Of a DNA stretch of 64,000 bases, positions 4,910 through 26,730 are shown in pieces. Position numbers and translations under genes: made by a program. How positions within the stretch are numbered: position 1 is the first letter of the stretch; each line of letters starts with the position of its first letter. Below the pieces are notes generated by a model. The model was not told the origin of the DNA. It made no database searches and was given only the letters and a program-made list of their open reading frames with translations. The stretch is from Escherichia phage KEP4. The stretch lies in sequence record PP047754; one strand, 5' to 3'.

Positions 4910-4946
4910 AATACCCCTAGATGACATGAATACATTTAGGGGTATT
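4910..4946 (+). promoter_or_regulatory. hairpin fused to late-promoter box (CTAAATACCCC at 4907-4917); 10-bp stem aataccccta/taggggtatt
   Basis: perfect inverted repeat 4910-4919 / 4937-4946; right-arm GGGG lies 8 nt before ATG 4951. Confidence 0.6.
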
Positions 4947-7900: not shown

Positions 7901-8124
7901 TACAGATAACCGTTCAAACAGGTACTTCACCAACAGCTTCACCTTATTTTTCAGTGCGGAAGGCGATCCGCACCCGCCATCAACCGATGATAACGGCGCA
8001 GATCGTCACCACAACTGGGAACATGTCTCATTGTTGGGGTATGCAATCTAGTACAGCAGGAAACTGGATGGTGGGTCAGAATACAACTCCTTCGGGGCTT
8101 ACGACATATTACGCAAAAGGGTAA
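4951..8124 (+). CDS. tailspike protein, long form (1057 aa) with N-terminal attachment domains and a C-terminal beta-helix-like region
   Basis: shares an internal module with ORF 10771 (SLQEVARAYNF...VVIYDTTSQRSWGIPSGIP vs SIQEIARSANV...VVYDVAAQTSYGLPTIP); Gly/Asn-rich periodic C-terminus. Confidence 0.7.
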   Translation: MANKPTQPLFPLGLETSESSNIKGFNNSGTIEHSPGAVMTFPEDTEVTGLPSSVRYNPDSDEFEGYYENGGWLSLGGGGIRWETLPYAPSSNLLEGRGYLINNTTGTSTVVLPSPTRVGDSVTICDAYGKFATYPLTVSPAGNNLYGSTEDMTISTDNVSATFTWSGAEQGWVVTSGVGLGQGRVYSREIFTQILASETSAVTLNTPPTIVDVYADGKRLAESKYSLDGNVITFDPSLPASTELQVIEYTPIQLGTGGGGSGASAITWIYNGGSAIGGETEITLDIVVDDVPAIDINGSRQYKNLGFTFDPLTSKITLTQELEPEDEVVVVINGTPNIYNQIDRSLQEVARAYNFTNAQVILSNDYTSVLDNKVVIYDTTSQRSWGIPSGIPAGSTVVSVNGDQLKYKNGSTETTVTLVSVPGSAEKLKNDLASNSGSGMLKTSRGDTVEEELTFINQNMVVQISDFASLRTLVPATAGIRVKLKGYYSGSEIGGGEFISVAGDAVDDAGMIARVSSSFYWKRIIDKHITPGMYGIKGNLPEDPAVKLNAMFTAAAAANAYVLLNDVDTLVCKSPVVIPAHSLVYGNKRTILKRDASLSYANDFLTIMNDSYVKGIYVDGSRLDSQTPLEAVLVRIAGNVTIHKSEIRNNAGYGVVGNAVPGIRITKNIFSNFAKGCVAMFGDGTATSDDLQINDNRFFNLGAGTIYVGGYSNFLVDKNVGRGTYVGSPGNRLYVVTNTNGTITQSAGPDFGPLKTGMFFVLPGGSEHMITAVNSLTSVTVTPPPPSNATVRAIAGTGDLLGIQSCSYGTISRNNLTDCVTYGTGGGTMEGSTLGCNYVTWEDNFIRNTGKNGINVGQSGAGVATCSILRNTLIQVGNGGQGVGPAYLLPWFDTLGIALYQGNPGYMANMDVSDNNVSTWSGDLNDGAAWFGMSGCTEATVTCTGNKSSGYSDGYVRGDILEVTLTGYGTGAAATSFVSDGESIQITVQTGTSPTASPYFSVRKAIRTRHQPMITAQIVTTTGNMSHCWGMQSSTAGNWMVGQNTTPSGLTTYYAKG

Positions 8125-8137
8125 TATTGAATGCCTA

Positions 8138-8171
8138 AATACCCCATATTGGTCATCCTTTATGGGGTATT
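8138..8171 (+). promoter_or_regulatory. hairpin fused to late-promoter box (CTAAATA 8135-8141); 11-bp stem aataccccata/tatggggtatt
   Basis: perfect inverted repeat 8138-8148 / 8161-8171; GGGG 7 nt before ATG 8175; near-identical copy at 10726-10765. Confidence 0.65.
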
Positions 8172-8174
8172 ATC

Positions 8175-10715: not shown

Positions 10716-10730
10716 ATTGAATTGAGCCTA

Positions 10731-10765
10731 AATACCCCATATTGGCAAATCCTTTATGGGGTATT
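10731..10765 (+). promoter_or_regulatory. hairpin fused to late-promoter box (CTAAATA 10728-10734); copy of the 8138 element
   Basis: inverted repeat 10731-10741 / 10755-10765; the in-frame ATG at 10756 lies inside the right arm. Confidence 0.65.
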
Positions 10766-10770
10766 TTCAA

Positions 10771-13536
10771 ATGACCAGAAATGTAGAAGAATTATTCGGC
10801 GGCGTAATCACAGCTCCCCACCAGATTCCTTTCACTTATAAATCAAGTGTCGGTGGAGAAACTTTCTTTTCTCTACCTTTCTATCCTGTCACTGGCGTAG
10901 TCACAATTAACGGCGGCATGCAAGTTCCGTTAGACAACTTCGAGATAGACGGGAATACGTTGAATCTCGGGCGCGCATTGTCCAAAGGCGATGTTGTGTA
11001 TTGCTTATTCGATAAAATTCTTTCACCAGAAGACACTGCCAAAGGCATCCGCATATACAAATTTCAAGCCGTGGGTGGAGAAACTGAATTCACGCCTGAC
11101 TTTACTTCTTATGGTGTACAGTCTCTTTATATCGGTGGCGAATACAAAACTCCTGATATAGAATATTCCTATAACAGCACGACAGGGAAAGTGTCTTTGC
11201 AAACTGCATTGACTGCAGGCGTTTGGGTAGTCGCTGAAATGTCTGTTAAACAACCGAATATCAGTCCGGCGTTTGATCGCAGTATTCAAGAAATTGCCCG
11301 TTCTGCTAATGTGAAAGACTCTGAAGTCATCGTTAGTACGGACACCATATCTTTATTGGATGGGAAGAAAGTTGTTTATGACGTAGCGGCGCAAACCAGT
11401 TATGGCTTACCAACCATTCCTGATGGTTCTGTCATTTCTTCTGTTAGTAATGGGCAACTTACTTATAATCCAGGTAATGTTGTAGTGGATTTGTTACCTT
11501 TAGAAGATTCATTTATTAATGTGATAAACACTCTGGGGCGCAATGATGGTGCCAAGTATATCGGAGAATGCCATTCTGTTGCTGATCTCAGGAATACTGA
11601 ACCCACTATGGATGGACAACGCATTATTCTTAAGCAACACACTGCGGGTACTCTTCTTGGTGGAGGGGTATTCCGTGCGTTAATTGATGGTACAGGAAAG
11701 ACTGATGATAACGGCACTGTGATCAAAACTGTTGGCGGCGCAGCCTGGTTACGTGTTAATGCTGATAGAGTTAACCCATTCATGTTTGGTGCTTTGGGCG
11801 GTTCTAATGATGATACTATTCCAGTACAATCTTGTGTGGACAGTGGTAAGGCCACACAATTAACTGGTGTACATTACGTTAGCAATATCCGGTTAAAATA
11901 TAATACGTCGTCTATTTATGGGTCTGGATTACATTACTCCAGGTTGCATCAGTTGCCTTCTGCTACTGGGAATTGTATTACCATAAAAGATACATGCTCC
12001 CTTATTGTATTAGACTCCTTTGGGGTATATGGCACAGGTGCACAACAAGGCACATCATTTACTGCGGGTACAACAGGTATCTATATAGAAACTCCTTCAG
12101 GTCTCTCAGCCGATTATCCGTTCCACACTACCGCAGACCCAAGACGCGACTTGTGTATTTCTAAGGTCCATATAGCAGGTTTTGATGAATATGGGTTAAA
12201 TATTGATAGTGGTAACTTTAGTGTTACTACAGATTCTCTTTTAGTCAACCACATCAATCAGGTGGGCGTCCGTTGTGCTACTACTGATTGGACTTGGACA
12301 AATATTCAGGTTAATACCTGCGGTAAACAATGTCTGGTTCTTGATGGTTGTGGTAATGGTCGTATTATTGGTGGTAAATTCATTTGGGCTAACTGGCAAC
12401 CTTATGGTACAGTAGGACAGTTCCCAGGCATTACTATTAATAATAGCCAGAATATGGTTATTAATGGTATTGAGGTACAAGATTGTGGCGGGAATGGCAT
12501 TGAGATTAGCGATTCATATTCAATTTCCATGAACGGATTGAACACCAATCGTAACGGCATCAACGCTAACAACACTTTCTACAACATCGTATTTAACAAA
12601 AGTGATGCAGTTATCAACGGATTCGTAGGACTCAATTATGCTGCGAATAGTGGTTCAGGTGCTAACTCTAGTGCAGGCAATTTTCAGTTCCTGTCTAATG
12701 ATTGCAGCGTCACCATTAATGGTGTGGTTGAGACTGGTTATATGGGCATTAACTTTATTGGTGATAACAATATTATCAACCCCACAAATTCCGAACTGAG
12801 CATTAACGGATTGGTTAATTATTCCAAGACTGGTTTGCAAACCATGAACGAGACCCCTACATTTGATGGTGTTAGCACTACACCTGTTTATGTAAGTGTC
12901 CCATCTTCTGTAGGGCAAGTAAATGGTCTGAGACTATCACAAGCCAACAAAGATAAATTACTGTACTCAAGAACAGCAGGTCCAGAAGGTATTACCATGG
13001 CTGCTGTTGTAGTACCTACCATATCTGGAGCTGAAGTATTTAACTTCATGGCCATTGGTTCAGGGTTTAGTGATACATCCAACAGTCTTCATCTTCAATT
13101 AGTTATAGACGCTTCTGGAAAACAAACAATTGCTTTGCTATTGGGGGGCGATGGTACAACCCAAATTTTATCTGGGGATTTACCTAACGACCTTAAACTA
13201 CAAAGTGGTGTGCCATATCATATAGCTATTGGTGCTAAACCTGGATATTTCTGGTGGAGTATTCTTAATATTCAGACGGGTAAGAGAATCAGACGGTCAT
13301 TCCGAGGCGCTTATTTAGCTGTACCATTTAATTCTATATTCGGATTAACTTCTTCATTAACATTCTTCTCGGATAGCAATGCTGGTGGGGATGCCTGTTC
13401 TGGTGTAGGTGCTAAAGTGTATGTTGGTATGTTCTCTTCTGAGAATGATTATGTAGCTTCACGGTACTACAACCTGATTAATCCTGTAGACCCTAATAAG
13501 TTAATTAGTTACCGTATATTGGATTCTTCTATTTAA
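10771..13536 (+). CDS. tailspike protein (921 aa) with N-terminal attachment domains and beta-helix
   Basis: start set to ATG 10771 (hairpin-spacer-ATG as at 4951 and 8175) rather than track ATG 10756; repeats GNGRIIGG, NGIEVQDCGGNGIEISD. Confidence 0.7.
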   Translation: MTRNVEELFGGVITAPHQIPFTYKSSVGGETFFSLPFYPVTGVVTINGGMQVPLDNFEIDGNTLNLGRALSKGDVVYCLFDKILSPEDTAKGIRIYKFQAVGGETEFTPDFTSYGVQSLYIGGEYKTPDIEYSYNSTTGKVSLQTALTAGVWVVAEMSVKQPNISPAFDRSIQEIARSANVKDSEVIVSTDTISLLDGKKVVYDVAAQTSYGLPTIPDGSVISSVSNGQLTYNPGNVVVDLLPLEDSFINVINTLGRNDGAKYIGECHSVADLRNTEPTMDGQRIILKQHTAGTLLGGGVFRALIDGTGKTDDNGTVIKTVGGAAWLRVNADRVNPFMFGALGGSNDDTIPVQSCVDSGKATQLTGVHYVSNIRLKYNTSSIYGSGLHYSRLHQLPSATGNCITIKDTCSLIVLDSFGVYGTGAQQGTSFTAGTTGIYIETPSGLSADYPFHTTADPRRDLCISKVHIAGFDEYGLNIDSGNFSVTTDSLLVNHINQVGVRCATTDWTWTNIQVNTCGKQCLVLDGCGNGRIIGGKFIWANWQPYGTVGQFPGITINNSQNMVINGIEVQDCGGNGIEISDSYSISMNGLNTNRNGINANNTFYNIVFNKSDAVINGFVGLNYAANSGSGANSSAGNFQFLSNDCSVTINGVVETGYMGINFIGDNNIINPTNSELSINGLVNYSKTGLQTMNETPTFDGVSTTPVYVSVPSSVGQVNGLRLSQANKDKLLYSRTAGPEGITMAAVVVPTISGAEVFNFMAIGSGFSDTSNSLHLQLVIDASGKQTIALLLGGDGTTQILSGDLPNDLKLQSGVPYHIAIGAKPGYFWWSILNIQTGKRIRRSFRGAYLAVPFNSIFGLTSSLTFFSDSNAGGDACSGVGAKVYVGMFSSENDYVASRYYNLINPVDPNKLISYRILDSSI

Positions 13537-13540
13537 AAAT

Positions 13541-13562
13541 ATACCCCTCTTCGGAGGGTATT
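13541..13562 (+). terminator. terminator-like hairpin (tacccctc-ttcg-gagggta) followed by TTT
   Basis: GC stem with ttcg tetraloop directly after stop 13536; shares the ATACCCC motif with the promoter hairpins. Confidence 0.5.
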
Positions 13563-13590
13563 TACTAGAGAAAAACAGGAGATTCTTATT

Positions 13591-15825
13591 ATGAATCCGC
13601 AATTTGCTCAACCAAAAGGTTCTACTTCAAAAGAATCGAATAAAGATAGCATCGCCCGTAAATTTGGGTGCAAAAAGTCGGAAGTCGTTTATGCGAAATC
13701 AGGACAGTCCTTGTCTGGTTATAAGGTTATTTATGACAAGGAAACACAGAGAGCGTATTCCTTGCCTGTAGATATTCCAGCAGGAACCACGGTTATTAGC
13801 CTTAGCGCCAGTGCTCTGCTTGTACACTCTGGGGGTTCTGTAGACCTGGGCGAACTAGCTTCCCAACGCAATGAATATAATGTATTACCTGGTTCTTTTA
13901 CTACTGGTGCAATAGTATCCACAAAGAATGATGTACTTACCCACAATGGTATCCAGTATCGTTGGAATGGTTCATTACCTAAAGTTGTACCTCAGAACTC
14001 TTTACCATCCAGTGATGATAATTGGATTGGCTTGGGTGCTTCTTATCTGAAGGAACAGCTTAACAGTACCAGTGGTGCATCCATGGTAGTACTGGCTAAT
14101 GGCAAAACCATTGAAGAAGAATTTGCCGAAGAAGCTGCATGGCAGAACCAAGAGAATATGGTGAGAACCGTTATTCCTAATGTTTATCACCATATCCGTG
14201 GCGTTCAGCGTCACTCTGGTAAAAACTTAGCATGGTCTGCTCCAGACGTTGCTATTGATAAACTTAACCCTACGGATACCGTCTTCTACCGTATGCCCCA
14301 GATTGTTAAAACTGGTGATGGTACTCTGATGATTTTCTGTAATGAGTTGCATGGTAACAATACAGATATTGGTGCTACTCCAGATCAGCAATGTAATATC
14401 GTTATGAAATACTCCATTGATAATGGGTGGTCTTGGTCGGCTAAGGTAGTGGTAGCTAACTTTGGGGCTACGTATCAGAACGGTGAGATTGCTGCTGTGT
14501 ATAACCCAGCAGATGGTCGGGTATACTGTTACTTTACTTCCTGCAAAGGCCAGTTGGGTTGGGGATACTCACAGCCAGGCAATGACCCTAATACATCATC
14601 CCAGATATATGTTACCTACTGTGATGCGGAAGCTCCTACTATATGGCGTACACCAGCTAACCTTACTGCTACCCTTAAGCCAGCAACGGCAGATTTTATC
14701 TGGACTTCACCAACTAAACCAGTTGTTTTACCGGATGGTAAGATGGCAATGATTGTGTCTACCGTCACTGGTTCACGGGTTGATTCTTTCCTTACCATCA
14801 TGAAGTATGACATTAAGTACAGCATGGACTACGTACTTAGTTCCGAAGAATCTGGTGGGGAAGTCGGACTGAACCTTTTGCCGGATGGTCGTATGGTGAT
14901 GAACTCTCGTGCTTACCACACCACAGACCTTAAAGGGCTTCAGAAATTCTATATCAGTGATCATCAGTTTAAGAACTGGCAGCACTTATCTGATTTAGTT
15001 ACATCGGATAGTAAGGGTGACCTGGTTCCTATTTTTGATGGGGTTAATGGTGTTCTTACTTGGGCGTTTACTTGTGCTAATGGTGTAGGTGATAATTCTA
15101 TTGGTCGTACTAACTACCGAGTATGGATTAGTCGTGACCTAGTTACTTGGGGGTTAGCTCCTACTGGGGATATCAACACAAGTGATTCTGTTGGGTACAT
15201 CGCATCAATGCCTGGTGGTGATGATGGTTATGTAATCTCTACATCTGAATCAGGTGGTTTTGGTGGTATTTGGTTTACTCAATGGAATGCTAAGTATATC
15301 CAGAACAGAAACTACAACCGCTATCACAAAGAGTTGCGAGAATTAGAGTCAGTAGATGAAACAGCAATGCTCGCATCCGGTGCTATTCCTAACTACTCTT
15401 TTTACGTAAACAAAGACTCCAACCTAATTAACTTCAACCGCAACGGTACTCCAGTTAAGATTCAGCAGTTGGGGGTTAGTCAGAATGCTGTTGATAAGTA
15501 CACTACAACTCAGACCCTAGCATCTATTCCTGTAGATGGTGTTGATATTGTATTAGTCACTGGTTCTGGTACTACTCTTACCCTTAGTGGGTTTAGCGGT
15601 GGATATATGGGCCAGCGTGTGACAGTTATCTCTGATTCATCTGGTGGTGGGGTGGTGCTTAAACGTGCTGATACAACATTGCCTACTGTAACGGACAGAT
15701 TCCACTTTAATGTGGCAGGAGCCTTTACTGCTTTGAGGGTAGACTATGCAACTAAGATGATGGCTACTTTAGTTAAGACTCCATCTGGTTGGTTCACGGA
15801 AAGTATTGCTAACGTAACAATCTAA
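13591..15825 (+). CDS. tailspike protein (744 aa) with sialidase/BNR-like beta-propeller catalytic domain
   Basis: AGGAG SD 9 nt upstream; N-terminal anchor domain paralogous to ORF 8175; FYRMPQIV (RIP-like) motif and Asp-box SIDNGWSW. Confidence 0.65.
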   Translation: MNPQFAQPKGSTSKESNKDSIARKFGCKKSEVVYAKSGQSLSGYKVIYDKETQRAYSLPVDIPAGTTVISLSASALLVHSGGSVDLGELASQRNEYNVLPGSFTTGAIVSTKNDVLTHNGIQYRWNGSLPKVVPQNSLPSSDDNWIGLGASYLKEQLNSTSGASMVVLANGKTIEEEFAEEAAWQNQENMVRTVIPNVYHHIRGVQRHSGKNLAWSAPDVAIDKLNPTDTVFYRMPQIVKTGDGTLMIFCNELHGNNTDIGATPDQQCNIVMKYSIDNGWSWSAKVVVANFGATYQNGEIAAVYNPADGRVYCYFTSCKGQLGWGYSQPGNDPNTSSQIYVTYCDAEAPTIWRTPANLTATLKPATADFIWTSPTKPVVLPDGKMAMIVSTVTGSRVDSFLTIMKYDIKYSMDYVLSSEESGGEVGLNLLPDGRMVMNSRAYHTTDLKGLQKFYISDHQFKNWQHLSDLVTSDSKGDLVPIFDGVNGVLTWAFTCANGVGDNSIGRTNYRVWISRDLVTWGLAPTGDINTSDSVGYIASMPGGDDGYVISTSESGGFGGIWFTQWNAKYIQNRNYNRYHKELRELESVDETAMLASGAIPNYSFYVNKDSNLINFNRNGTPVKIQQLGVSQNAVDKYTTTQTLASIPVDGVDIVLVTGSGTTLTLSGFSGGYMGQRVTVISDSSGGGVVLKRADTTLPTVTDRFHFNVAGAFTALRVDYATKMMATLVKTPSGWFTESIANVTI

Positions 15826-15831
15826 AATACA

Positions 15832-15857
15832 AGCCCCCAATAAGGGGGCTTTCTTTT
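15832..15857 (+). terminator. rho-independent terminator (agccccc-aataa-gggggct + TTCTTTT)
   Basis: 7-bp GC stem plus U-tract after the tailspike block. Confidence 0.75.
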
Positions 15858-15915: not shown

Positions 15916-15922
15916 CTAAATA
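15916..15922 (+). promoter_or_regulatory. late-promoter-like box CTAAATA (also TATAAAAT at 15926-15933)
   Basis: about 35 nt upstream of ATG 15956. Confidence 0.4.
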
Positions 15923-15955
15923 TCTCTATAAAATGGCACTCGATGGAGCATCAAA

Positions 15956-18900
15956 ATGCAATCTACAAATTTAAACCGTCGCCCGTATTGGGATGACTGG
16001 AATCCTGGGAAACGTTTTTCACGGATTCTTTTTCGTCCGATGCCTATCAAGGTTCAGACTCGCGAACTGAATCAGATGCAGACTATTCTTCAGGATCAAA
16101 TTGAAAAACTGGGCAACCATTTGTTCAAAGATGGTTCTATGGTTATCCCTGGCGGTTTGACGATCACTAACGCCGCAGTCTCTTTGAAATTCACTTTGGC
16201 TGGTGGTACTGAATTCACTGATCTGGAAGGTATTTCTGAACTCTACGTTTTGGGGAAAGACAATAACGCCAAAGCGCGTGTGCTGTCTCTTGAACGTGAT
16301 CTGTCTGCTCCTGATACAATGCTGGCTATCCTTGAGATGACTGAAGCGGGTAATGCTGACGGATTCCATGTTAACGATAATCTGTATTTCCAGACTTACG
16401 ACGTGAATGATAATTTCATTCGTATTGGTTATGGGATCGCGGCTGCTGTGACTGGTTCTATCGTTGCTCGTATGACGAAAGGCGTTTACTTCATTCGTGG
16501 GATGTTCCTAGACGTTGATGACGCGACTCTTATCGTTGATAAAACTTCGAACACGTCTTCCCACCGCGTCGGATTTAAAGTCACTGAAACCATCGTGACT
16601 GAATCTGAAGACGAATCCCTTTATTCAAATGCTCAGGGAACGATTAACTCCAAAGCCCCAGGCGCTCATCGTCTTCGAATAGATCTGGTCTTATCTCGAT
16701 TTGATTATGATGCTGTGGTTGAAGACTTTGTTGAACTGGCCAAAGTTCGTGATGGTAAAATCCAGTCTATGGTGACTCAGTCCACCTATAATATTCTGGA
16801 AGACACGTTGGCCCAACGGACGTATGAAACCAACGGCGATTACAACGTTTCAACGCACCAGATCGACATCCGCGAACACCTGAAAGTCAATAACAATGGT
16901 GGTGTATTCAATGCTGCTGATGGCGGCGACGAAAGTAAATTCGTGTCTGTAATGAAACCAGGTATTTCCTATGTTCGCGGTCGCCGTATCGAAAACGTCG
17001 GGGAAGAGTTGGTGATCGTTGATAAGGCGCGGGATACCGATGTCCTGAACAACACCCCTGTTGCGGTGGCCACAGGCAATTATCTGGTCACTAAGAATTC
17101 TAAAGGTGTGCCAGTGATATCCCGCACCGTTCGATACAAATTACTGAATGCTTCAGGCGTTACCCAGGCTACAGCACTTTGTATATCAGCTGAACGTAAT
17201 TCAACAGAATTTCGTCTGTATATGCGCGACCTGGTCGTTACTGGCGATGCATCCACTATCACCAAAGTGTCTTACGAAGAAAGCGGTATCACCATGTTCT
17301 CTGCTGAACTGGAATCCAATCAGTTTAACCAGAGTTCTATGATAGATCTGATCTTCTCTCTTCCGGTATTCGGTGTCAAGACTTTAGCACCAACTGGCTC
17401 CGTGGATATCAACTACACTGTTCTCAGAACGTATAAAGTGACGTTGGACAACAGCGGCGCGGGTTCTATTTCTGCTCCATTGGGATATAGTTTTTCCCCA
17501 GAATTTTCGTTGTACTCTGCAGCGAAATCTGATGGTTCTGAAGCGCAGTTCGATATCTCTGGTTCTTTGTCTTTGACTGGTTCTCCGGTCGGTTCGGCGT
17601 TGCAGATTTCTCTGGGCAGTGGTAATGCTAACCAGTCAATCAATTTGCTGGCGCTGATGATTCGTACCACGGCCACAATCAAAACGAAGACCATCACTGA
17701 AACAACTGAAACAGTGACGTTCACCTCGCAGACTAGCCACCCTTTGGCGAATCACGATGGTTGGAAATTGGTGTCGGTCAAAAACGATACTGGCGCAGAC
17801 GTGACCTCCAGCTTCGTCCTAGATGGCGGACAGCGTGATGCAGGGTATTACAAGTCTAACTTGTTATCCAGCGCTGGAGCAATCTCAGGGACGTATACAG
17901 TGGTGTATCAATACTTCGCCCACAGTTCCGGTGATTTCTTCTCTGCTGATTCGTATACTTCGATGGATTATAAAGATATCCCGAATTATACATCTTCTAC
18001 ATCAGGCGCGGTGTACGGCCTGGCAGATAGTTTGGATTTCCGTCCGAAAATCACCAACGGAACTTCTGACACAGATATGGTTCGTCCAAACACTGCAGTT
18101 ATTCTGGACACAGAATATTATCTGCCGCGTATTGACGCGATTTATCTGGCAGATAACGGTGTGTTTGGTGTGGCTCGTGGCATCAGTTCGAACAATCTGG
18201 CTTCTCCAGCAATCCCAGCGAACGCCATGCGTTTGTATGAATTGTTGATCCCACCGTATACGCCGAATATTGATGATATCCAAATTCGCACTATTGACAA
18301 TCGTCGTTATACGATGCGCGATATCGGTAAACTGGAAACCCGTATTTCCAATGTTGAATACTATACCTCTCTGTCACAGTTGGAATCTTCAGCGATGACA
18401 CAGCAAGTGTTTGACCCCATCACGGGTAATCCTCGTTTCAAAAATGGTATTGCAGCTGATCCGTTCAAAGACTTCCGGTTGATTGATGACTTGTCTGAAG
18501 ATTGGATGGGTTCTATCGATACCGAAAACGGACGTCTGCGCCCGTTTGTACAACAAAACGTTGTTGACATGACTCCGGTTGGCTGGAACAAAGTGATGGA
18601 TGGGATGGTGGTTTGTAATTACACGCCTGAAATCTCAGTGAACCAAGAATATGCGACGACGACGATCAACGTTAACCCGTATGCAGTATTCAACTGGGAA
18701 GGTTTCTTGAAGATTAACCCGACCACGGACTACTGGTTCGAAAACTATTATGTTGCCCCGCGTATTATTAATGAAACGATCAACACCCGTGGTACTGTAC
18801 AAGAAGGTTCAGTGTACGGAACATGGCGGACTGTTTCTGTTTCTGATCGTGTTTGGGAGCCGCATGGTGCTGGTGGTGTGTGGTGGGGATATCGTTACCG

Positions 18901-20794
18901 CACGACTGTTTCTGCCCGTGATGTGACCACATACACATACACAGACAAAACAACCACGACCATGACTGGTGAACAGATTGTGGAGACGCAAGTTATCCCA
19001 TACATGCGCGAGATCGATATTTCTTTCGACGCATCTGGACTGCGACCTTTCACTCGTATGTATGCGTTCTTCTCTGGTCGTGACGTCAATCTGTATTGCA
19101 AACCGAATGGCGGTAATTTCGGTGACCCAATCACCACTGATGCCAATGGTGCTGTTAAAGGTGTATTCCGCGTTCCACAGAACGATACAATCAAGTTCAA
19201 CACAGGTGACAACGTGTTCCGCTTGACAGATAGCCCTGTTGATAGTAAATCTGCGGATGATACACTGACCAATGCAGAAATTGTTCATAAATCTTTCGGC
19301 AAGAAACAAGGTATTCAAAAGACCTTTGTCAACACTCGTGTCTTGGGTTACACTGCCAGCACTCGCACCGAAACTTCTACTTCTGAAGTTGTGGTCGACC
19401 AATGGCGTGATCCGATTGCCCAATCGTTTATGGTGGCGACTAAGATTGGCGGCGAGTATATCGAAGGCGTGGAAGTATTCTTCTCTACCAAATCTCGCGA
19501 TGTACCGATCACTTTGGAAATTCGCGAGATGGAGAATGGCTTACCTTCTCACACAGTCATTACTCGTAAGACTTTGAACCCATCTGAAGTGACGATCTCT
19601 ACAGACTCTTCCGGCGGTACGAAGTTCACCTTTGATTATCCGGTGTATCTGCAAGCATCGACTGAGTTTGCTATCGTTTTGTTGGCGAATACTCAGGATT
19701 ACAACGCGTATATCGCGGAAATGGGCAAGAAAAACCTTCTGTCCAACGAATATATCGCCAAACAACCGTATACAGGGGTGTTCTTCACTTCTTCAAACGG
19801 TTCAACTTGGTCTCCGAACCAAATGGCTGATATGAAATTCCGCATATATCGTTGCAACTTTGCGGCTGGTCAGAACGTTGTAACATTTGATCCGAAGCTC
19901 GGGCCAAAACAACGTCCTCTGGGTCTGAACACTCTCAACTGTGTGAGCGGGTCTTCTGTTGTGACGGTGTTTGCACCTGGTCATGGTTTGGTTGCTGGGA
20001 ACAATGTTACTCTGTCTGAATTGACAGGTGGTTGTGGGTTCACCCCAGAACAACTCAACAAAACATTTACCGTGACAGACGCAAGCTATACTTCATTCAA
20101 GATTGATGTTGGCGCAGCAGCAGACAGCAACGGTCAGATTGGTGGTGACAACGCATCTTTCTTGGGCAATTATCTGGTTGATATGTTCTATGCCAGTGTC
20201 ACCAATTCAGCTCTGGAAGGTTCAATTCTGAAATTGGAATATCGCTATCGCGATGCTACTTCCAATTCTATGTCTGATTGGGCTGAATTTGAAACTGACA
20301 CTGACGTGGCGTTGCCGACTGAAGGGATCTATCGTCAGGTCGGGGATTTCCAGATCCGAGCCACCATGACGCGCAGTGAAAACAACGTGTACACCGCTCC
20401 AATGATTGATGGTGATGACCTGAGCGTAATCTTCAACTCATACGGCGTGGATCCATTTGAAGATGTCTTCAAATATGTGACAAAAGACATCGGATTTGAT
20501 AACCCATGTTCGACTGTGAAGTTGTTCTTTGGTGCAATGCTCCCATCTCAGTCTTCTATGAAGGTGCAGGTGAAACTTCTTAGAGCAGGTCAGGAGATGG
20601 ATAGTGTGGCTTGGGAAGATGTTACTCCAACGTCGCCTCTGGTCAACGACGGTTCTACATTCTTTGAATATGAATACGACAAGACTGTGGCGAGCAATAA
20701 CCCGTTTGTTGGCCTGAAAGTCCGAGCGCTTGTACGGGGGAACCGCGTTGCTCCTCCATCATTCAAAGACTTCCGTCTTATTGCTCTGGCATAA
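15956..20794 (+). CDS. very large virion structural protein (1612 aa), function unassigned (possibly baseplate/wedge)
   Basis: 4.8-kb uninterrupted ORF with GGAG SD 7 nt upstream; lies between tailspikes and neck genes; no catalytic motif recognised. Confidence 0.6.
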   Translation: MQSTNLNRRPYWDDWNPGKRFSRILFRPMPIKVQTRELNQMQTILQDQIEKLGNHLFKDGSMVIPGGLTITNAAVSLKFTLAGGTEFTDLEGISELYVLGKDNNAKARVLSLERDLSAPDTMLAILEMTEAGNADGFHVNDNLYFQTYDVNDNFIRIGYGIAAAVTGSIVARMTKGVYFIRGMFLDVDDATLIVDKTSNTSSHRVGFKVTETIVTESEDESLYSNAQGTINSKAPGAHRLRIDLVLSRFDYDAVVEDFVELAKVRDGKIQSMVTQSTYNILEDTLAQRTYETNGDYNVSTHQIDIREHLKVNNNGGVFNAADGGDESKFVSVMKPGISYVRGRRIENVGEELVIVDKARDTDVLNNTPVAVATGNYLVTKNSKGVPVISRTVRYKLLNASGVTQATALCISAERNSTEFRLYMRDLVVTGDASTITKVSYEESGITMFSAELESNQFNQSSMIDLIFSLPVFGVKTLAPTGSVDINYTVLRTYKVTLDNSGAGSISAPLGYSFSPEFSLYSAAKSDGSEAQFDISGSLSLTGSPVGSALQISLGSGNANQSINLLALMIRTTATIKTKTITETTETVTFTSQTSHPLANHDGWKLVSVKNDTGADVTSSFVLDGGQRDAGYYKSNLLSSAGAISGTYTVVYQYFAHSSGDFFSADSYTSMDYKDIPNYTSSTSGAVYGLADSLDFRPKITNGTSDTDMVRPNTAVILDTEYYLPRIDAIYLADNGVFGVARGISSNNLASPAIPANAMRLYELLIPPYTPNIDDIQIRTIDNRRYTMRDIGKLETRISNVEYYTSLSQLESSAMTQQVFDPITGNPRFKNGIAADPFKDFRLIDDLSEDWMGSIDTENGRLRPFVQQNVVDMTPVGWNKVMDGMVVCNYTPEISVNQEYATTTINVNPYAVFNWEGFLKINPTTDYWFENYYVAPRIINETINTRGTVQEGSVYGTWRTVSVSDRVWEPHGAGGVWWGYRYRTTVSARDVTTYTYTDKTTTTMTGEQIVETQVIPYMREIDISFDASGLRPFTRMYAFFSGRDVNLYCKPNGGNFGDPITTDANGAVKGVFRVPQNDTIKFNTGDNVFRLTDSPVDSKSADDTLTNAEIVHKSFGKKQGIQKTFVNTRVLGYTASTRTETSTSEVVVDQWRDPIAQSFMVATKIGGEYIEGVEVFFSTKSRDVPITLEIREMENGLPSHTVITRKTLNPSEVTISTDSSGGTKFTFDYPVYLQASTEFAIVLLANTQDYNAYIAEMGKKNLLSNEYIAKQPYTGVFFTSSNGSTWSPNQMADMKFRIYRCNFAAGQNVVTFDPKLGPKQRPLGLNTLNCVSGSSVVTVFAPGHGLVAGNNVTLSELTGGCGFTPEQLNKTFTVTDASYTSFKIDVGAAADSNGQIGGDNASFLGNYLVDMFYASVTNSALEGSILKLEYRYRDATSNSMSDWAEFETDTDVALPTEGIYRQVGDFQIRATMTRSENNVYTAPMIDGDDLSVIFNSYGVDPFEDVFKYVTKDIGFDNPCSTVKLFFGAMLPSQSSMKVQVKLLRAGQEMDSVAWEDVTPTSPLVNDGSTFFEYEYDKTVASNNPFVGLKVRALVRGNRVAPPSFKDFRLIALA

Positions 20795-20846: not shown

Positions 20847-21095
20847 ATGCGTGGAATGAAAGTACAGGGGCACGCATCCATGTTGAGAAGCAGTTCTTGT
20901 CCAGGCGCGATCATTTGTACTGATCATGCTGCAGGTATGGCTGCATTGCAAGCCCGTCAACGCAACGAAACCCGTGAAGCCACCATTGTTGAACAATCAA
21001 ACCAGATATCGAATCTGGAGGCGACGATCAAAATGATGGCCGAAAAGTTGGGGATAGAAATCCCCGAAGGAGGTCAGAATGGCGACGCAAGCTGA
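20847..21095 (+). CDS. hypothetical small protein (82 aa)
   Basis: ATG 20847 with GAGGA SD; track start 20808 is an alternative. Confidence 0.45.
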   Translation: MRGMKVQGHASMLRSSSCPGAIICTDHAAGMAALQARQRNETREATIVEQSNQISNLEATIKMMAEKLGIEIPEGGQNGDAS

Positions 21096-21420
21096 AAGAT
21101 CTGGGCTTGATATCCGTGGTATCTTGACTGCTGTCGTGGCTTCTGCATTGGTCTCGGCGGCGTCGTTCCTTTGGTTTATGGGTGGGATGGAAACACGCGT
21201 GAATGTATTGGAGCGAGATTCTAATAAAATGGATCAGGTCCTTCAAAAGGTGAATGACATGAGTGAGCGCATGGCGATCATGAATACAGACCTCGCATAT
21301 GTCAAACAAAATATGGCTGAGTTAAAACTCAATAGCAGCAGCCTATCAGACGATGTCCGCACATTGCGGATTACTGTATCTGATTTGCAGCAACGAGGGA
21401 ATAACAATGGCCGTCAATAA
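21079..21420 (+). CDS. hypothetical membrane-anchored coiled-coil protein (113 aa)
   Basis: GAAGGAGG SD; N-terminal TM helix ILTAVVASALVSAASFLWFMGG then coiled-coil-like region. Confidence 0.5.
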   Translation: MATQAERSGLDIRGILTAVVASALVSAASFLWFMGGMETRVNVLERDSNKMDQVLQKVNDMSERMAIMNTDLAYVKQNMAELKLNSSSLSDDVRTLRITVSDLQQRGNNNGRQ

Positions 21421-23806: not shown

Positions 23807-24487
23807 ATGAGCAATATGTCAGAAAGGTTACTTGCGACGCTAGACGCGGTGACTGCCAGAGATGAAGTTGGTAAGGAGGCGATGGAAGCCGTCTCTCCAC
23901 GTCCAGGTATTGACTTCGATGAAAAAACGGGCGAGTGGTTTGGTGAACGCCCAGAAGGTTATCAGCCGATTCCAGAACCTCCATCATTGGAAGATATCGC
24001 GTCCAAAGAATCCAAGGTTCCGGAGTTTGCGGATACTGATGCCACAACAGATTACAAGCGGATACGCGACACAACATATGCCATGCAAGAAGCCACGATG
24101 TTCATGATGGGGCAAGCTGCTAAATTAGCTGCATCTACCGAAGCCCCAAGAGCGTTTTCCGTGTTTCGTGAATTGGGCGAACTCATGCGCGGCCTGAACA
24201 AAGACCTGATGGAAAACCAAAAAACCATCAAAGCTGTGACAGGGGATAAAGAACCGCCGACTGATGACACAACCGTGGATGTTACCACTTCACCCGACGG
24301 GACCACAACAGTATCTGTTGGGAAGAAAGCGAGATCTTCGCGCGATTTATTGAAAACGATCGAAGATGCACGCCGCCGCGCTGAAGAACGCGCCCAGGCA
24401 AAAGCCACCCAACAAACCGAAGATGAAATTATCGACGGAGAAACGGTTGACGTGAAGGAAGAAGACGATGGCGTATCAGAAGCGTGA
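23807..24487 (+). CDS. terminase small subunit (T4 gp16-like)
   Basis: GGAGGA SD 6 nt before ATG 23807 (track start 23801 is TTG); segment MQEATMFMMGQAAKLAAS...FRELGELMRG resembles T4 gp16; directly upstream of TerL and overlapping it. Confidence 0.7.
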   Translation: MSNMSERLLATLDAVTARDEVGKEAMEAVSPRPGIDFDEKTGEWFGERPEGYQPIPEPPSLEDIASKESKVPEFADTDATTDYKRIRDTTYAMQEATMFMMGQAAKLAASTEAPRAFSVFRELGELMRGLNKDLMENQKTIKAVTGDKEPPTDDTTVDVTTSPDGTTTVSVGKKARSSRDLLKTIEDARRRAEERAQAKATQQTEDEIIDGETVDVKEEDDGVSEA

Positions 24488-26678
24488 TATAGAATATGCT
24501 CCGATAAAAACGGGGTTTAAAATCGACGACGTGAAATTGCGTATGGACCAGACGTTCATGCGCAAGCCTTCTGTGCGCGCTCCACGAGTCGAGTTGATGC
24601 TAACAGATGAACAAGAAGACGAATTTGTTGAATGTTCAATGGACGCGCATTACTTCGCTGCCAATTACTATAAGATAACGACAATCGATAAAGGCTTTAT
24701 CCTTTTCGATATGCATGATTATCAGAAACAATTATTTCACGATTTTCAAGATTATCGTTTCAATGCCGTTGTCCAGGCGCGTCAGTCCGGTAAATGCGTC
24801 CGTGGTGATACTCTTGTTTATGTCTATGATACAGTCAGTCAACAAGAGTTGCATCTCACCATAGAAGAGCTTCACAAGCGCTTCGAAGGACCGAACCATG
24901 CTGTGCCACTGAATACCATTGGCAACCACAATAAGTTTGTAGACAGCCGTTTCGGGAAACGATATTTTGTTGAGTCCGACACTGGCTGGGTTCCGGTTAT
25001 TGCCGCTCATAAAACGAAAGAATACGCTGAATACGTGGTCAGGACTGAAACCGGACGCACAATTCATGTCGCAGATGAGCACATGTTCTTCAATGAATAT
25101 GGGCGCGAAGTATTTGCTAAAGACATGGAGGCCGGAGATGCCATAATGACCCAGGAGGGAATAGAATTCATCTCTGAGATCTGGGAGACTGGTGAGTACC
25201 ACCACATGTATGACTTGCAAGTCAAGTCCAGCGATCAACGTTATTACACGAATGGGTTCCTCAGCCATAATACCACGGTCGTGGCTGCGTTTCTTCTTTG
25301 GTATGCGATGTTCCACTCAGACAAAGAAATCGCGGTACTGGCAAACAAAGAGAAACAAGCGATTGAAATTCTTGACCGTATCAGGAAGGCGTATCAGGAC
25401 CTCCCATTCTTCCTTCAGCAGGGTTGTGAGAAGTTTGGTTCTACACTGATAGAGTTTGAGAACGGCTCTAAGATATATGCTTATGCAACGTCTTCGGACT
25501 CTATTCGTGGTCGTTCTGTATCTCTCTTGTACGTGGACGAAGTCGCATTCATCGAAAATGACTTTGAATTTTGGGAATCAACATTCCCAGCGATCGCATC
25601 TGCTGATACTTCACGTTGTATTCTGACCAGTACTCCGAAAGGCCAGCGAGGGTTGTTCTATGATATCGTCACCAAAGCAGACCCGCGCCATCCGCAATAC
25701 AACGACTTCCATCTTACCGAAGTCCCTTGGTACAAGGTTCCGGCGTACACCAAAGACCCTGATTGGGAAACCAAACAACGCGCTCGTCTGGGGGATGCCC
25801 GTTTTGACCAGGAATTTGGAATCAAGTTCCGTGGTTCTGTAGGTTCATTGATACCAGCCAAATGCTTGGATAAAATGACATCCAAGTTATATCGAGAGCC
25901 TAATGAATTCACCAAAATTTACAAGGAATATGACCCGCAACGCATCTACTTCGGGATTGCAGATACGGGGAAAGGTGTTGAAGGAGATTATTCGGTTCTG
26001 ACAATTCTGGATATAACGGAATACCCGCATGTCATAGCGGCCAAGTACAGGAACAATACAATACCTCCGATGATGTATGCATACACGATAGCCGATATGT
26101 GTACTGAATACGGGGAATGCCCTGTCCTTGTAGAAACCAACAACGACGTTGGTGGACAGGTTATTACGATCTTGTATCAAGAAATTGAGTATCCAGAGAT
26201 CATATTCACGTCGACGGATAACAAAGGGACAGGGAAACGGATTGGTGGTCGTAAACCAGAGCCAGGCATTAACACCAACAGGAAAGTGCGATCTATTGGT
26301 TGTGCTAACCTGAAAGCGCTTATTGAGAAAGAAATGTTGGTGATTGAAGATCAAGACACGATAGATGAACTCAGCACATTCGTGTTCCGTGGTGCGCGTT
26401 ATGAAGCAGATGATGGATGTCACGACGACTGCGTTATGCCGTTGGTATTATATTCTTGGGCAGTTAAACAAGAATGGTTCAGTGATCTGACTTCTACCAG
26501 TATTTCTCAAGACATGAGAAATAGAATGTCTTCGACTGAGTCACAACAAGTATTCCCGTTTGGTGGTTTAGTCGTGGGAGACACTCCATCTGGAACTGAG
26601 CATCTCCCTGGGTTCGGTGGTGTTCAAGTCTTCGACGAACGTTCAGGGATGACCATGGATGAGTGGTTTAAGAATTGA
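24468..26678 (+). CDS. terminase large subunit (T4 gp17-like), intein-containing
   Basis: extein reads ARQSGK/TTVVAAFLLW (T4: SRQLGKTTVVAIFLAHF), downstream YVDEVAFI Walker B-like and nuclease region; 736 aa vs ~610 for T4. Confidence 0.9.
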   Translation: MAYQKRDIEYAPIKTGFKIDDVKLRMDQTFMRKPSVRAPRVELMLTDEQEDEFVECSMDAHYFAANYYKITTIDKGFILFDMHDYQKQLFHDFQDYRFNAVVQARQSGKCVRGDTLVYVYDTVSQQELHLTIEELHKRFEGPNHAVPLNTIGNHNKFVDSRFGKRYFVESDTGWVPVIAAHKTKEYAEYVVRTETGRTIHVADEHMFFNEYGREVFAKDMEAGDAIMTQEGIEFISEIWETGEYHHMYDLQVKSSDQRYYTNGFLSHNTTVVAAFLLWYAMFHSDKEIAVLANKEKQAIEILDRIRKAYQDLPFFLQQGCEKFGSTLIEFENGSKIYAYATSSDSIRGRSVSLLYVDEVAFIENDFEFWESTFPAIASADTSRCILTSTPKGQRGLFYDIVTKADPRHPQYNDFHLTEVPWYKVPAYTKDPDWETKQRARLGDARFDQEFGIKFRGSVGSLIPAKCLDKMTSKLYREPNEFTKIYKEYDPQRIYFGIADTGKGVEGDYSVLTILDITEYPHVIAAKYRNNTIPPMMYAYTIADMCTEYGECPVLVETNNDVGGQVITILYQEIEYPEIIFTSTDNKGTGKRIGGRKPEPGINTNRKVRSIGCANLKALIEKEMLVIEDQDTIDELSTFVFRGARYEADDGCHDDCVMPLVLYSWAVKQEWFSDLTSTSISQDMRNRMSSTESQQVFPFGGLVVGDTPSGTEHLPGFGGVQVFDERSGMTMDEWFKN
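24795..25271 (+). mobile_element. mini-intein (159 aa) inserted in the TerL Walker A P-loop between GK and T
   Basis: starts Cys (CVRGDTLV, block A), contains GRTIHVADEH (block B-like), ends FLSHN followed by Thr +1; no homing-endonuclease domain. Confidence 0.75.
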
Positions 26679-26681
26679 TCA

Positions 26682-26688
26682 CTAAATA
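26682..26688 (+). promoter_or_regulatory. late-promoter-like box CTAAATA upstream of the sheath gene
   Basis: immediately after TerL stop; about 40 nt before ATG 26731. Confidence 0.4.
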
Positions 26689-26730
26689 TCTTTCAAATTG
26701 AGCGAAACTCTACCGAGAAGGAATGATATT

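Follow-up and report, generated by a model that had tools for sequence, protein, structure and literature searches.

The largest gene in the window, by which we mean the whole 64,000-nucleotide stretch of Escherichia phage KEP4 DNA (PP047754) that was analysed, is an ATG-initiated open reading frame (ORF) of 4.8 kb at 15956..20794 on the + strand, encoding 1612 amino acids plus the stop codon; the next-largest ORF is TSP4 with 1057 aa. The tailspike genes, in the order TSP4-TSP3-TSP2-TSP1 (4951-15825), are followed by this gene, vriC, then by two small ORFs (20847-21095 and 21079-21420) and the gp13/gp14 neck genes. The gene order is colinear with CBA120 orf213..orf203, the KEP4 genome being of the Kuttervirus type, and the KEP4 protein is 99.8% identical to CBA120 orf209 ("VriC/VrlC"). 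The coding gene is real: its differences from CBA120 comprise 154 synonymous and 5 nonsynonymous ones. The ORF, its size, its rank in the window and its placement between tailspikes and neck genes are exactly as an earlier note on this DNA had described them. The features at the locus are as follows.

15831..15851, + strand: intrinsic-terminator-like hairpin AAGCCCCC-aataa-GGGGGCTT, then TCTTTT; closes the TSP1 transcript
15916..15924, + strand: CTAAATATC, a late-type promoter box 32 nt before the vriC ATG
15945..15948, + strand: good Shine-Dalgarno, GGAG, 7 nt before the vriC ATG, from direct reading of the sequence
15956..20794, + strand: VriC/VrlC coding sequence (1612 aa plus stop), long-form tripod-protein homologue (DUF4815)
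20847..21095, + strand: orf208-like 82-aa protein, candidate small virion partner of VriC

vriC is a late-expressed gene with its own upstream terminator, late box and Shine-Dalgarno sequence. CTAAATAYC occurs seven times in the window against 1.0 expected, a count attained in none of 100 shuffles, and all seven sites lie on the + strand directly upstream of the late structural genes gp6, TSP4, TSP3, TSP2, VriC, gp14, and gp18. ACTAAATAY gave six matches (0.8 expected), and the late-promoter consensus of the T4-like phage Aeh1 is CTAAATA (PMC1524935). A T4-type late promoter, TATAAATA, was also considered, but none was found upstream of vriC at one mismatch or fewer, and the CTAAATAYC box takes its place. 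The late-promoter-like boxes of the earlier note thus survive as the box at 15916-15924, although not as the T4 consensus.

The orf208-like protein has a nearly invariant N-terminus (26 aa) and a coiled-coil-like C-terminal half. In RSP15 a homologue immediately follows the VrlC gene. Cyanophage P-SSM7, where the orf208 profile hits P-SSM7_096 ("virion structural protein") at E=5.5e-4, probably has one in this position too. No significant homology to Herelleviridae gp107 or to a 56-aa ORF was found (E=0.04; hhalign probability 1.7%), and the likeness to these is positional only. The orf208 protein may be a virion partner of the VriC complex.

Conservation and virion abundance of VriC

Purified virions of related phages contain large amounts of the protein. 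AG3 orf206, which is 84% identical to VriC with no gaps and is syntenic, was among the six most intense bands of CsCl-purified virions, with 36 peptides (PMC3121705). Sajous1 gp140, taken as an orthologue because it is annotated as VriC and lies among tailspike and neck genes rather than from an alignment, gave 311 spectra in CsCl-purified virions, second only to the capsid protein (PMC10892097). The earlier note had proposed a virion protein, and the presence of these two orthologues in virions bears this out.

The gene adjoins the tsp cluster in all Ackermannviridae and has already been catalogued as a marker flanking it; the protein is present in 1689 phage records. The orthologues CBA120 orf209, AG3 orf206, and RSP15 ORF044 (99.8%, 84%, and 37% identical) have the same length and synteny, and no difference of substance separates KEP4 VriC from those of CBA120, AG3, Sajous1, and RSP15. 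In the wider VriC/VrlC family, the gene always lies within the baseplate/receptor-binding module, as in RSP15, P-SSM7 (directly after gp8), A511, and Silviavirus.

The dN/dS ratio of vriC against CBA120 is 0.009, which resembles that of portal or sheath and is unlike that of a host-range determinant. The full-length architecture of ~1600 aa is kept down to 31% identity without swapped modules. Module swapping or a hypervariable receptor-binding tip was considered and rejected: homologues with an apparent "58% coverage" are full-length proteins in which the BLAST alignment merely breaks, and conservation extends to the last residue. Host range is not determined by VriC, given how little it varies among phages that differ in O-antigen specificity. 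VriC is shown here to be a late-expressed, strongly conserved, and abundant virion protein.

Colinearity of VriC with phage tripod proteins

VriC matches Pfam PF16075 (DUF4815) with 207.5 bits against a gathering cut-off of 30 (E=3.8e-61), as well as PHROGs 358 and 877; no NCBIfam model matched. Searched against PDB sequences, VriC matched the DUF4815 chain found in the baseplate entries of phi812 (9euf_0, E=1.2e-51). The VriC-family HMM aligned in four colinear blocks with residues 2-1146 of the 1152 in the Silviavirus tripod (E=1e-132) and residues 1-1145 of the 1151 in A511 gp106 (E=1.2e-141), the identity of VriC to tripod proteins in the aligned blocks being ~26%. Its C-terminal region resembles tripod residues 955-1146 at the profile level only (i-E 2e-8). 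The "unassigned function" of the earlier note was therefore an overstatement: vriC/vrlC is a conserved marker of Ackermannviridae, and the homologues A511 gp106 and phage 812 gp119 are structurally characterised.

The AF2 models point to the same proteins. The top Foldseek matches in the PDB were phage 812 tripod chains for both halves of VriC, namely 9eui_Q (1.6e-23) and 9euj_G (3e-15) for the N-terminal half (pLDDT 80.7) and 9euf_0 (E=1e-19) for the C-terminal half (pLDDT 88.9); neither half had a non-tripod match in the PDB with E<1e-4. VriC is thus colinear with tripod proteins over its whole length, and the tripod fold is its only structural match. The models contain exactly three long helices (aa 35-56, 280-293, and 787-815) in an otherwise all-beta protein, and these are candidates for the tripod spine helices, with which alignment position equates them. 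[quoted passage not shown] Pfam detected neither a named carbohydrate-binding domain nor LysM (E<=0.1) in VriC; a LysM-like C-terminal "hook" belongs to phage 812 and its relatives only and does not define the family.

VriC is not a tailspike, and it lacks a repetitive beta-helix signature, as the earlier note had remarked. It has no Beta_helix or Tail_spike_N Pfam match, unlike the four neighbouring TSPs, no TSP N-terminal modules and no internal or tandem repeats, and its AF2 models consist of beta-sandwich domains plus the three long helices. An identity as tailspike or depolymerase is accordingly not supported.

Alignment and models divide VriC into the following segments, apart from a disordered linker at aa 1126-1147.

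15956..16132, + strand: aa 1-59, conserved N-terminus with predicted helix 35-56 (candidate spine helix 1), matching tripod residues 2-58
16133..16459, + strand: aa 60-168, INS1, long-form-specific beta segment and the least conserved segment; found in cyanophage VrlC but in neither A511 gp106 nor the Silviavirus tripod
16460..17074, + strand: aa 169-373, shared beta region with helix 280-293 (candidate spine helix 2), matching tripod residues 72-254
17075..18103, + strand: aa 374-716, INS2, confidently predicted as all-beta, ~210 aa longer than tripod residues 255-385
18104..18445, + strand: aa 717-830, most conserved DUF4815 core (EYYLPRID...RYTMRDIGKLE) with helix 787-815 (candidate spine helix 3)
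18446..18955, + strand: aa 831-1000, conserved motifs (TINVNPYAVFNWEG), low monomer pLDDT of ~50; putative "fiber" domain that would fold only in the trimer
18956..19330, + strand: aa 1001-1125, beta-sandwich in the AF2 model, pLDDT >90
19397..19891, + strand: aa 1148-1312, beta-sandwich beginning DPIAQSF (phrog_5986), among the best conserved in every lineage
19892..20179, + strand: aa 1313-1408, INS3, long-form-specific small beta domain
20180..20791, + strand: aa 1409-1612, beta-sandwich region at the C-terminus, homologue of tripod residues 955-1146 (anchor/hook)

The beta-sandwich at aa 1148-1312 corresponds approximately, by position, to the lectin-like "leg" region of Herelleviridae tripods (PMC11406892, PMC13433997). 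A weak Pfam match to Phage_spike_2 at aa 1351-1421 is below threshold, and the extreme C-terminus, ...DFRLIALA, is highly conserved.

The closest solved relative is the phage 812 tripod gp119 (PDB 9EUF/9EUI/9EUJ/9EUK, 9TIC and others; PMC13433997), a DUF4815 protein with which VriC is colinear over essentially the whole tripod chain. The three spine helices of gp119 have candidate counterparts in VriC, and its C-terminal beta-sandwiches, which are lectin/CBM-like, would correspond to those predicted for VriC. Both proteins are abundant in the virion, and both genes lie in a baseplate/receptor-binding module with a small ORF behind them. VriC is, however, 460 aa longer, with extra residues at aa 60-168, in much of 374-716 and at 1313-1408; ~550 residues in three segments are without a counterpart in the solved tripod. 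The receptor-binding genes are upstream of vriC in KEP4, whereas they are downstream of the tripod gene in phage 812. In phage 812, tripods and receptor-binding proteins both hang, independently, on a separate arm scaffold (PMC13433997); unlike there, no homologue of the arm scaffold (gp117) or arm segment (gp118) was detectable beside vriC, phmmer giving only E>0.01 among the tail proteins of the window, a tiny database. PDB sequence searches with the adjacent baseplate genes orf216 and orf215 returned only noise. That orf215 might be a diverged T4 gp8, an idea taken from the adjacency of gp8 and VrlC in P-SSM7 and a WOR-3 metagenome-assembled genome, found nothing in BLASTP.

A511 gp106, which forms the pyramids of a double-layered baseplate, aligns colinearly in those four blocks as well. 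Immunolocalisation placed it at the baseplate (PMC4621102), and it turns toward the cell wall when the phage attaches. Its gene is followed by that of the small gp107; unlike VriC, gp106 is a short form of 1151 aa without INS1-3. P-SSM7_094, a VrlC of 2534 aa from a T4-like cyanomyophage, has all segments of VriC, the three long-form insertions among them; its gene comes right after gp8 in the cluster of baseplate wedge genes and is followed by small ORFs. It is ~31-34% identical to VriC but far longer, with further insertions, and its phage has a T4-type gp8/gp9/gp10 periphery. The long form is thus defined by three extra segments common to the one cyanophage VrlC on which the mapping rests and missing in two Herelleviridae tripods.

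Proposed role at the baseplate

The PDB and literature searches found no structure of an Ackermannviridae baseplate, so the location, stoichiometry, and conformational change of VriC are extrapolated from phages infecting Gram-positive bacteria at ~26% identity. VriC is probably the Ackermannviridae orthologue of the baseplate "tripod" (pyramid) protein, and would be a generic module for the second step of attachment and for triggering. The tripod mechanism has been set out (PMC13433997), and VriC was previously proposed to form prong-like structures (PMC11721090). By analogy with phage 812, three VriC chains would form a trimer around the spine helices, the apex of which would dock on a peripheral baseplate protein, and these trimers would probably be the "prong-like" projections beneath the Ackermannviridae baseplate. 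The tailspikes would bind and cut the O-antigen or capsule until the baseplate nears the outer membrane, after which the tripods might change orientation so that their C-terminal domains, beta-sandwiches of lectin/CBM-like type, unfold in the direction of the cell. These domains might then attach to some conserved structure on the cell surface, the LPS core region being a plausible one, and this binding could lock the baseplate in its post-attachment conformation and add to the signal for sheath contraction. Since the host of KEP4 is Gram-negative, any ligand of VriC must differ from teichoic acid or peptidoglycan. According to a review, purified LPS alone sets off DNA release in Det7, which is compatible with an LPS-core ligand but also with no separate role for VriC.

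A narrower proposal is more tentative, and we give it rather less than even odds. Phages of Gram-negative and cyanobacterial hosts might have a distinct "long-form" tripod, composed of the core, three conserved additional beta modules and a dedicated small partner of the orf208 family from the virion, which would dock on another baseplate protein. As a conserved sensor, this assembly would detect a secondary receptor such as the LPS core, convert the digestion of O-antigen by the tailspikes into irreversible attachment and triggering of the sheath, and constitute the Ackermannviridae prongs.

The earlier note had suggested a baseplate or scaffold component anchoring the multi-spike complex. 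Association with the baseplate holds by homology, whereas nothing was found that indicates anchoring of the tailspike complex. A scaffold or adaptor joining the branched TSP1-4 complex to the baseplate, in a role like that of T4 gp7/gp10, would suit the invariable position of vriC beside the tsp cluster, the lack of a known baseplate partner for the TSP4 N-terminal anchor domain and the missing arm-scaffold homologue in the window, in place of which something else must carry the spikes. In addition, the tripod fiber domain touches RBP2 in contracted phage 812 (PMC13433997), and A511 immunolocalisation, as cited in PMC4621102, suggested that the receptor-binding protein gp108 bound directly to the VrlC homologue. 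We nevertheless regard this role as unlikely, given that VriC shows no similarity to T4 gp7, gp10 or any other wedge protein in Pfam, PDB sequence or Foldseek PDB searches, and the comparison with gp7 suggested in the earlier note came out negative. VriC has in common with gp7 and gp10 that they are large, late-expressed baseplate proteins of contractile tails, but the gp10-like XD adaptor domains of these phages reside in TSP2 and TSP4 themselves. Also, tripods and receptor-binding proteins join the arm scaffold independently in the sole atomic structure available (PMC13433997). The long form, with all its segments, occurs in P-SSM7 VrlC as well as in full-length homologues from phages that infect other hosts, Ralstonia RSP15 among them, which would count against the role if those phages lack a TSP4-type complex.

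Slightly less probable still is a purely structural decoration or stabiliser, for example one holding the pre-contraction baseplate together, which would neither bind the cell surface nor trigger. Constraint is extreme and even along VriC, which has no variable tip and no recognisable ligand-binding Pfam domain, and the Det7 observation in the review, LPS alone being enough for DNA release, would agree with such a passive part. Yet the homologous tripods of phage 812 and A511 shift conformation and contact the cell wall, the C-terminal domains of VriC have predicted lectin/CBM-like beta-sandwich folds, and the Ackermannviridae prongs face downward, toward the cell. A phage-carried bacterial virulence factor, as the label "virulence-associated protein VriC/VrlC" would have it and as some safety screens in biocontrol took for granted, is effectively refuted. 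Inherited annotation is all that speaks for it, against an abundant virion protein with late structural-gene signals, encoded within the tail/baseplate module, fully homologous to a solved baseplate component and found in all those phage records. Bacterial chromosomal homologues that might justify the name were sought, but all 59 genome-collection matches came from metagenome-assembled genomes and none from the chromosome of a cultured isolate. VriC is therefore a tripod homologue, probably of the baseplate periphery, rather than a virulence factor, a tailspike or a scaffold of the T4 gp7 kind.

Implications for Ackermannviridae phages

The resemblance of VriC to baseplate proteins of A511 and phi812 has already been published, and our analysis adds nothing new in kind. 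As a well-known, mislabelled Ackermannviridae protein with homology to tripods, VriC is ordinary and largely already explained. The new details are the long form with its three extra segments and the conserved small virion ORF (orf208) directly downstream of vriC.

Many phage genome records that match VriC carry the "virulence-associated" label, and at least one biocontrol study listed VriC as a putative virulence factor (PMC6783827). Because the evidence indicates a structural baseplate protein, the label should not count against the use of these phages in therapy or biocontrol. VriC is nearly invariant across Kuttervirus phages of differing host ranges and could thus serve as a stable target for antibodies, engineering anchors, and detection reagents. 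For the biology of the family, VriC is the best candidate for the prongs, as well as for the step that comes after the four tailspikes digest the O-antigen and before the tail contracts.

The VriC gene, its neighbours and its late box

The gene for VriC (or VrlC) occupies exactly the coordinates that the earlier note had assigned to it and is indeed the largest in the window, the runner-up ORF having 1057 aa. The gene is already catalogued as CBA120 orf209, from which it hardly differs (99.8% protein identity), and the window is colinear with CBA120. Megablast matched it to 242 phage records, with ≥80% coverage in 241; the closest, from Kuttervirus phages infecting Salmonella and E. coli (~97% nucleotide identity), are labelled 'virulence-associated VriC protein', 'VrlC protein' or 'hypothetical protein'. 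Published work uses the VriC gene as a conserved marker beside the tsp cluster (PMC8432352).

Features at and around the VriC gene
Upstream block, in order: gp6 wedge, orf216 (Pfam Baseplate_wedge), orf215
4951-15825: tailspikes TSP4 to TSP1, between orf215 and the VriC gene
15831-15851, +: hairpin and T-run directly after the TSP1 end (15825)
15916-15924, +: late-type box CTAAATATC
7 nt 5' of the VriC ATG: Shine-Dalgarno GGAG
15956-20794, +: VriC ORF, ATG start, 1612 codons and stop
20847-21095, +: orf208, 82 aa, directly 3' of the VriC gene
21079-21420, +: 113-aa ORF, overlapping the orf208 end
Next: gp13, gp14 and gp15 neck/completion genes, then terminase, sheath, tube, portal and capsid
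1045, 4907, 8135, 10728, 15916, 22432 and 26682, +: CTAAATAYC boxes

In the lineages compared (Kuttervirus, RSP15, P-SSM7, A511 and Silviavirus), the VriC-family gene always lies within the baseplate/receptor-binding module, and at least one small ORF follows it in every lineage. RSP15 has the Kuttervirus order around its VrlC homologue; A511 and Silviavirus have the order baseplate J, arm scaffold, arm segment, tripod, small ORF and RBPs; in cyanophage P-SSM7 the VrlC gene is directly 3' of that for the gp8 wedge subunit. The same gp8-VrlC adjacency occurs in a closed 2.3-Mb WOR-3 MAG chromosome (L053, CP070705.1, 5368-11855), where a gp8-like gene (Pfam Phage-Gp8, 7e-12) is immediately followed by one for a DUF4815 protein of 1286 aa. 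The flanks (±8 kb) are cellular, with a two-component system, an M48 peptidase and PorV-like and T9SS-sorted proteins, and hold no other phage genes; the two genes may have been left behind by a prophage or domesticated, or may stem from a misassembly. In the window, orf215 was considered as the gp8 equivalent and rejected, BLASTP showing no similarity to gp8. Conflicting labels attach to orf216 (2857-3711, +): it is a 'Phage baseplate wedge subunit' in Pfam (PF23786, 5e-154) and 'head closure Hc2' in PHROG 3465, the label propagated into the RSP15 annotation. The sheath (gp18) and tube (gp19) genes are separated by a 152-aa ORF (28684-29142, +) that corresponds to CBA120 'putative homing endonuclease SegD', a mobile-element insertion inside the tail gene block.

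The N-terminal 26 residues of orf208 are nearly invariant (MRGxKVQGHASMxRSSSCPGAIICTD) and its tail is coiled-coil-like. Some records, as well as PHROGs 4322 and 473, name it 'virion structural protein', and its iterated profile reached RSP15 ORF043 (E=8e-8) and, more weakly, P-SSM7_096 (E=5.5e-4; best background ORF 0.16), both 'virion structural proteins' encoded just 3' of a VrlC homologue. It is thus a plausible candidate for a small partner of long-form tripods; a profile comparison of orf208 with A511 gp107 gave no significant link. The 113-aa ORF corresponds to CBA120 orf206 and AG3 orf203, has a hydrophobic N-terminal segment (one TM in the AG3 annotation) and a long coiled-coil-like region, and may be the 'gp142 putative virion structural protein' of Sajous1, for which the count was low.

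The earlier note had placed late-promoter-like boxes before the gene. The T4 late consensus TATAAATA was not found upstream of it, but a CTAAATAYC-type box is present, and the claim therefore holds in a variant form. The window contains seven copies of CTAAATAYC where 1.0 would be expected by chance (0/100 shuffles reach seven), each on the plus strand and a short gap 5' of a late structural gene, namely gp6, TSP4, TSP3, TSP2, VriC, gp14 and gp18. In the T4-like Aeromonas phage Aeh1, CTAAATA is the reported late-promoter consensus (PMC1524935). CTAAATAYC thus appears to be the late-gene promoter box of this phage, and from these signals the VriC gene appears to have a late transcription start of its own. 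The TSP4 and TSP3 leaders also carry an inverted repeat, AATACCCC...GGGGTATT (4910-4946 and 8138-8171, +; 14 nt with 93% and 11 nt with 100% complementarity), which the VriC leader lacks. The late box CTAAATACC overlaps with the 5' arm of the repeat, and the sole SD-like purines lie in the 3' arm, which stops 4 nt short of the ATG; the repeat could control translation of the tailspike mRNAs or stabilise them at the 5' end.

Tripod homology and predicted fold

DUF4815 (207.5 bits, cut-off 30) was the only Pfam domain above threshold in VriC, no named carbohydrate-binding domain was detected, and PHROGs places the protein in families 358 and 877 without an assigned function. A PDB sequence search matched one family (E=1.2e-51), a 1152-aa 'DUF4815 domain-containing protein/ORF65' with 81 chains in 15 entries, including 9EUF, 9EUI, 9EUJ, 9EUK and 9TIC, which are cryo-EM structures of the Staphylococcus phage phi812/812 baseplate (PMC13433997, data-availability list). 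The matched chain is the phage 812 tripod protein gp119. Twelve tripod trimers per baseplate dock on arm scaffold protein loops, and they rotate, unfolding toward the cell wall, when the phage attaches; the tripod domains are spine, flap, fiber, base (CBM16-like), fin (CBM61-like), leg (lectin-like), anchor and hook (PMC13433997). Another member of this family is A511 gp106, the 'pyramid' of a double-layered baseplate.

An HMM built from 91 VriC-family sequences aligned colinearly with Herelleviridae tripods in four blocks (Silviavirus tripod, E=1e-132; A511 gp106, E=1e-141). Since these blocks cover the tripod chain, VriC is, at the level of sequence alignment, a complete tripod protein with three extra segments.

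Segments of VriC relative to the tripod
HMM 3-59: block 1, tripod 2-58
aa 60-168: INS1, extra
HMM 169-373: block 2, tripod 72-254
most of aa 374-716: INS2, extra
HMM 717-1312: block 3, tripod 386-948
aa 1313-1408: INS3, extra
HMM 1409-1611: block 4, tripod 955-1146
aa 35-56, 280-293 and 787-815: long helices in the predicted model

The P-SSM7 VrlC (2534 aa) contains every VriC segment, INS1-INS3 included. As these three are without counterpart in the Herelleviridae tripods aligned, the family appears to exist in two forms, a short one of ~1150 aa, seen in the two Herelleviridae tripods compared, and a long one of ≥1600 aa, seen in Ackermannviridae and in the single cyanomyophage VrlC mapped.

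VriC was folded as two overlapping halves (1-1135 and 1001-1612) with 81-sequence alignments. The C-terminal half (mean pLDDT 88.9) is predicted to be all beta; a disordered linker (1126-1147) separates the first of its sandwich domains (about 1001-1125) from the other three (about 1148-1312, 1313-1408 and 1409-1612). The N-terminal half (mean pLDDT 80.7) is mainly beta with exactly three long helices, all inside tripod-aligned blocks, which is consistent with the three spine helices of the tripod. Residues ~830-1000 carry invariant motifs (TINVNPYAVFNWEG), yet reach a pLDDT of only about 50 as a monomer; we infer that they would fold only in the trimer, and they are probably the 'fiber' domain. 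In Foldseek searches of the PDB, the top match of both halves was phi812 tripod chains (E=1e-19; 1.6e-23 and 3e-15), with nothing else at E<1e-4 for either half; weak matches included CBM22 tandem modules, endosialidase accessory domains and adhesin-type sandwiches. A BFVD search returned chiefly other DUF4815/VrlC-type proteins from many phage groups.

Virion presence and sequence constraint

The proposal that this is a virion protein is borne out by proteomics on orthologues in AG3 and Sajous1. ORF206 of phiSboM-AG3 (177.2 kDa), which we confirmed as the syntenic, 84%-identical orthologue of VriC, gave one of the six strongest bands from CsCl-purified virions, with 36 peptides covering 39.6% of it (PMC3121705). 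Sajous1, a Vi01-like phage, yielded 311 spectra of gp140 'VriC', a count exceeded only by that of the major capsid protein (PMC10892097). In the PhiM12 proteome, too, VrlC ranks with the most abundant proteins, and immunolocalisation placed the A511 homologue at the baseplate (PMC4621102).

VriC is a real gene under strong constraint: 154 synonymous and 5 nonsynonymous differences separate it from CBA120 (dN/dS 0.009), in line with portal (0.013), sheath (0.024) and capsid (0.034). The AG3 (Agtrevirus) orthologue aligns with zero gaps across 1612 residues. A search of 5.8 billion proteins yielded >1000 relatives; most of the 120 best listed have 1570-1720 aa and align over their full length at identities as low as 31%, those of Vibrio phage VP-1 and Ralstonia phage RSP15 included. 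Conservation extends over the entire chain, up to the terminal ...DFRLIALA motif. The few relatives with '58% coverage' turned out to be full-length homologues. Neither a hypervariable tip nor module exchange was found in VriC, in sharp contrast to the neighbouring tailspikes. The extra segments diverge somewhat faster than the core (66% vs 75% identity in close relatives, 28% vs 38% in distant ones), yet are not hypervariable. Separately, the large terminase gene (24468-26678, +; 24513-26723 in comparison sequence L001) has 84.7% nucleotide identity to CBA120 (dS 1.13). Because its neighbours are far closer (VriC 96.7%, gp18 96.4%, gp23 99.2%), mosaic recombination inside the late region is suggested.

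Possible roles at the baseplate

VriC is a late-expressed, abundant, highly constrained virion protein with the homology and fold of a tripod. The virulence factor implied by its name, a reading adopted in one safety screen (PMC6783827), is contradicted by the virion, homology, fold, context and expression findings together, and 59/59 homologues in a species-representative genome collection lie in metagenome-assembled genomes. The earlier note had pictured a scaffold anchoring the multi-spike complex. Older A511 immunolabelling suggested an RBP-VrlC contact (as cited in PMC4621102); our analysis gave the scaffold no positive support, and the comparison with T4 gp7 proposed alongside it was negative, neither gp7 nor another wedge protein appearing in the Foldseek PDB search. 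We consider this role unlikely. Passive decoration is possible.

The likeness of VriC to A511/phi812 baseplate proteins is already published, and the finding is real but ordinary. The present work adds a residue-level map of VriC onto the now-solved tripod, the split into long and short forms, with the long form common to the cyanophage VrlC examined, the CTAAATAYC late box, and the conserved orf208 family 3' of VriC.

A 2024 family review speculated that downward-facing 'prong-like structures' are VriC (PMC11721090); we found no Ackermannviridae baseplate structure in the PDB or the papers searched. A phmmer search detected no arm-scaffold homologue among the window's tail proteins as a docking partner, and PDB sequence searches with orf215 and orf216 gave no solved homologues. 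By analogy with phage 812 and A511, a tripod-like VriC trimer held by its spine helices would dock at the baseplate periphery. The tailspikes would first engage and cut the O-antigen; then, on the same analogy, the C-terminal sandwich domains would reorient and unfold toward the cell, and VriC would bind a conserved surface structure and might contribute to baseplate locking and the triggering of contraction. VriC is near-invariant across phages with different tailspike sets, which argues that its ligand, if any, would be conserved, such as the LPS core, rather than a determinant of host range.
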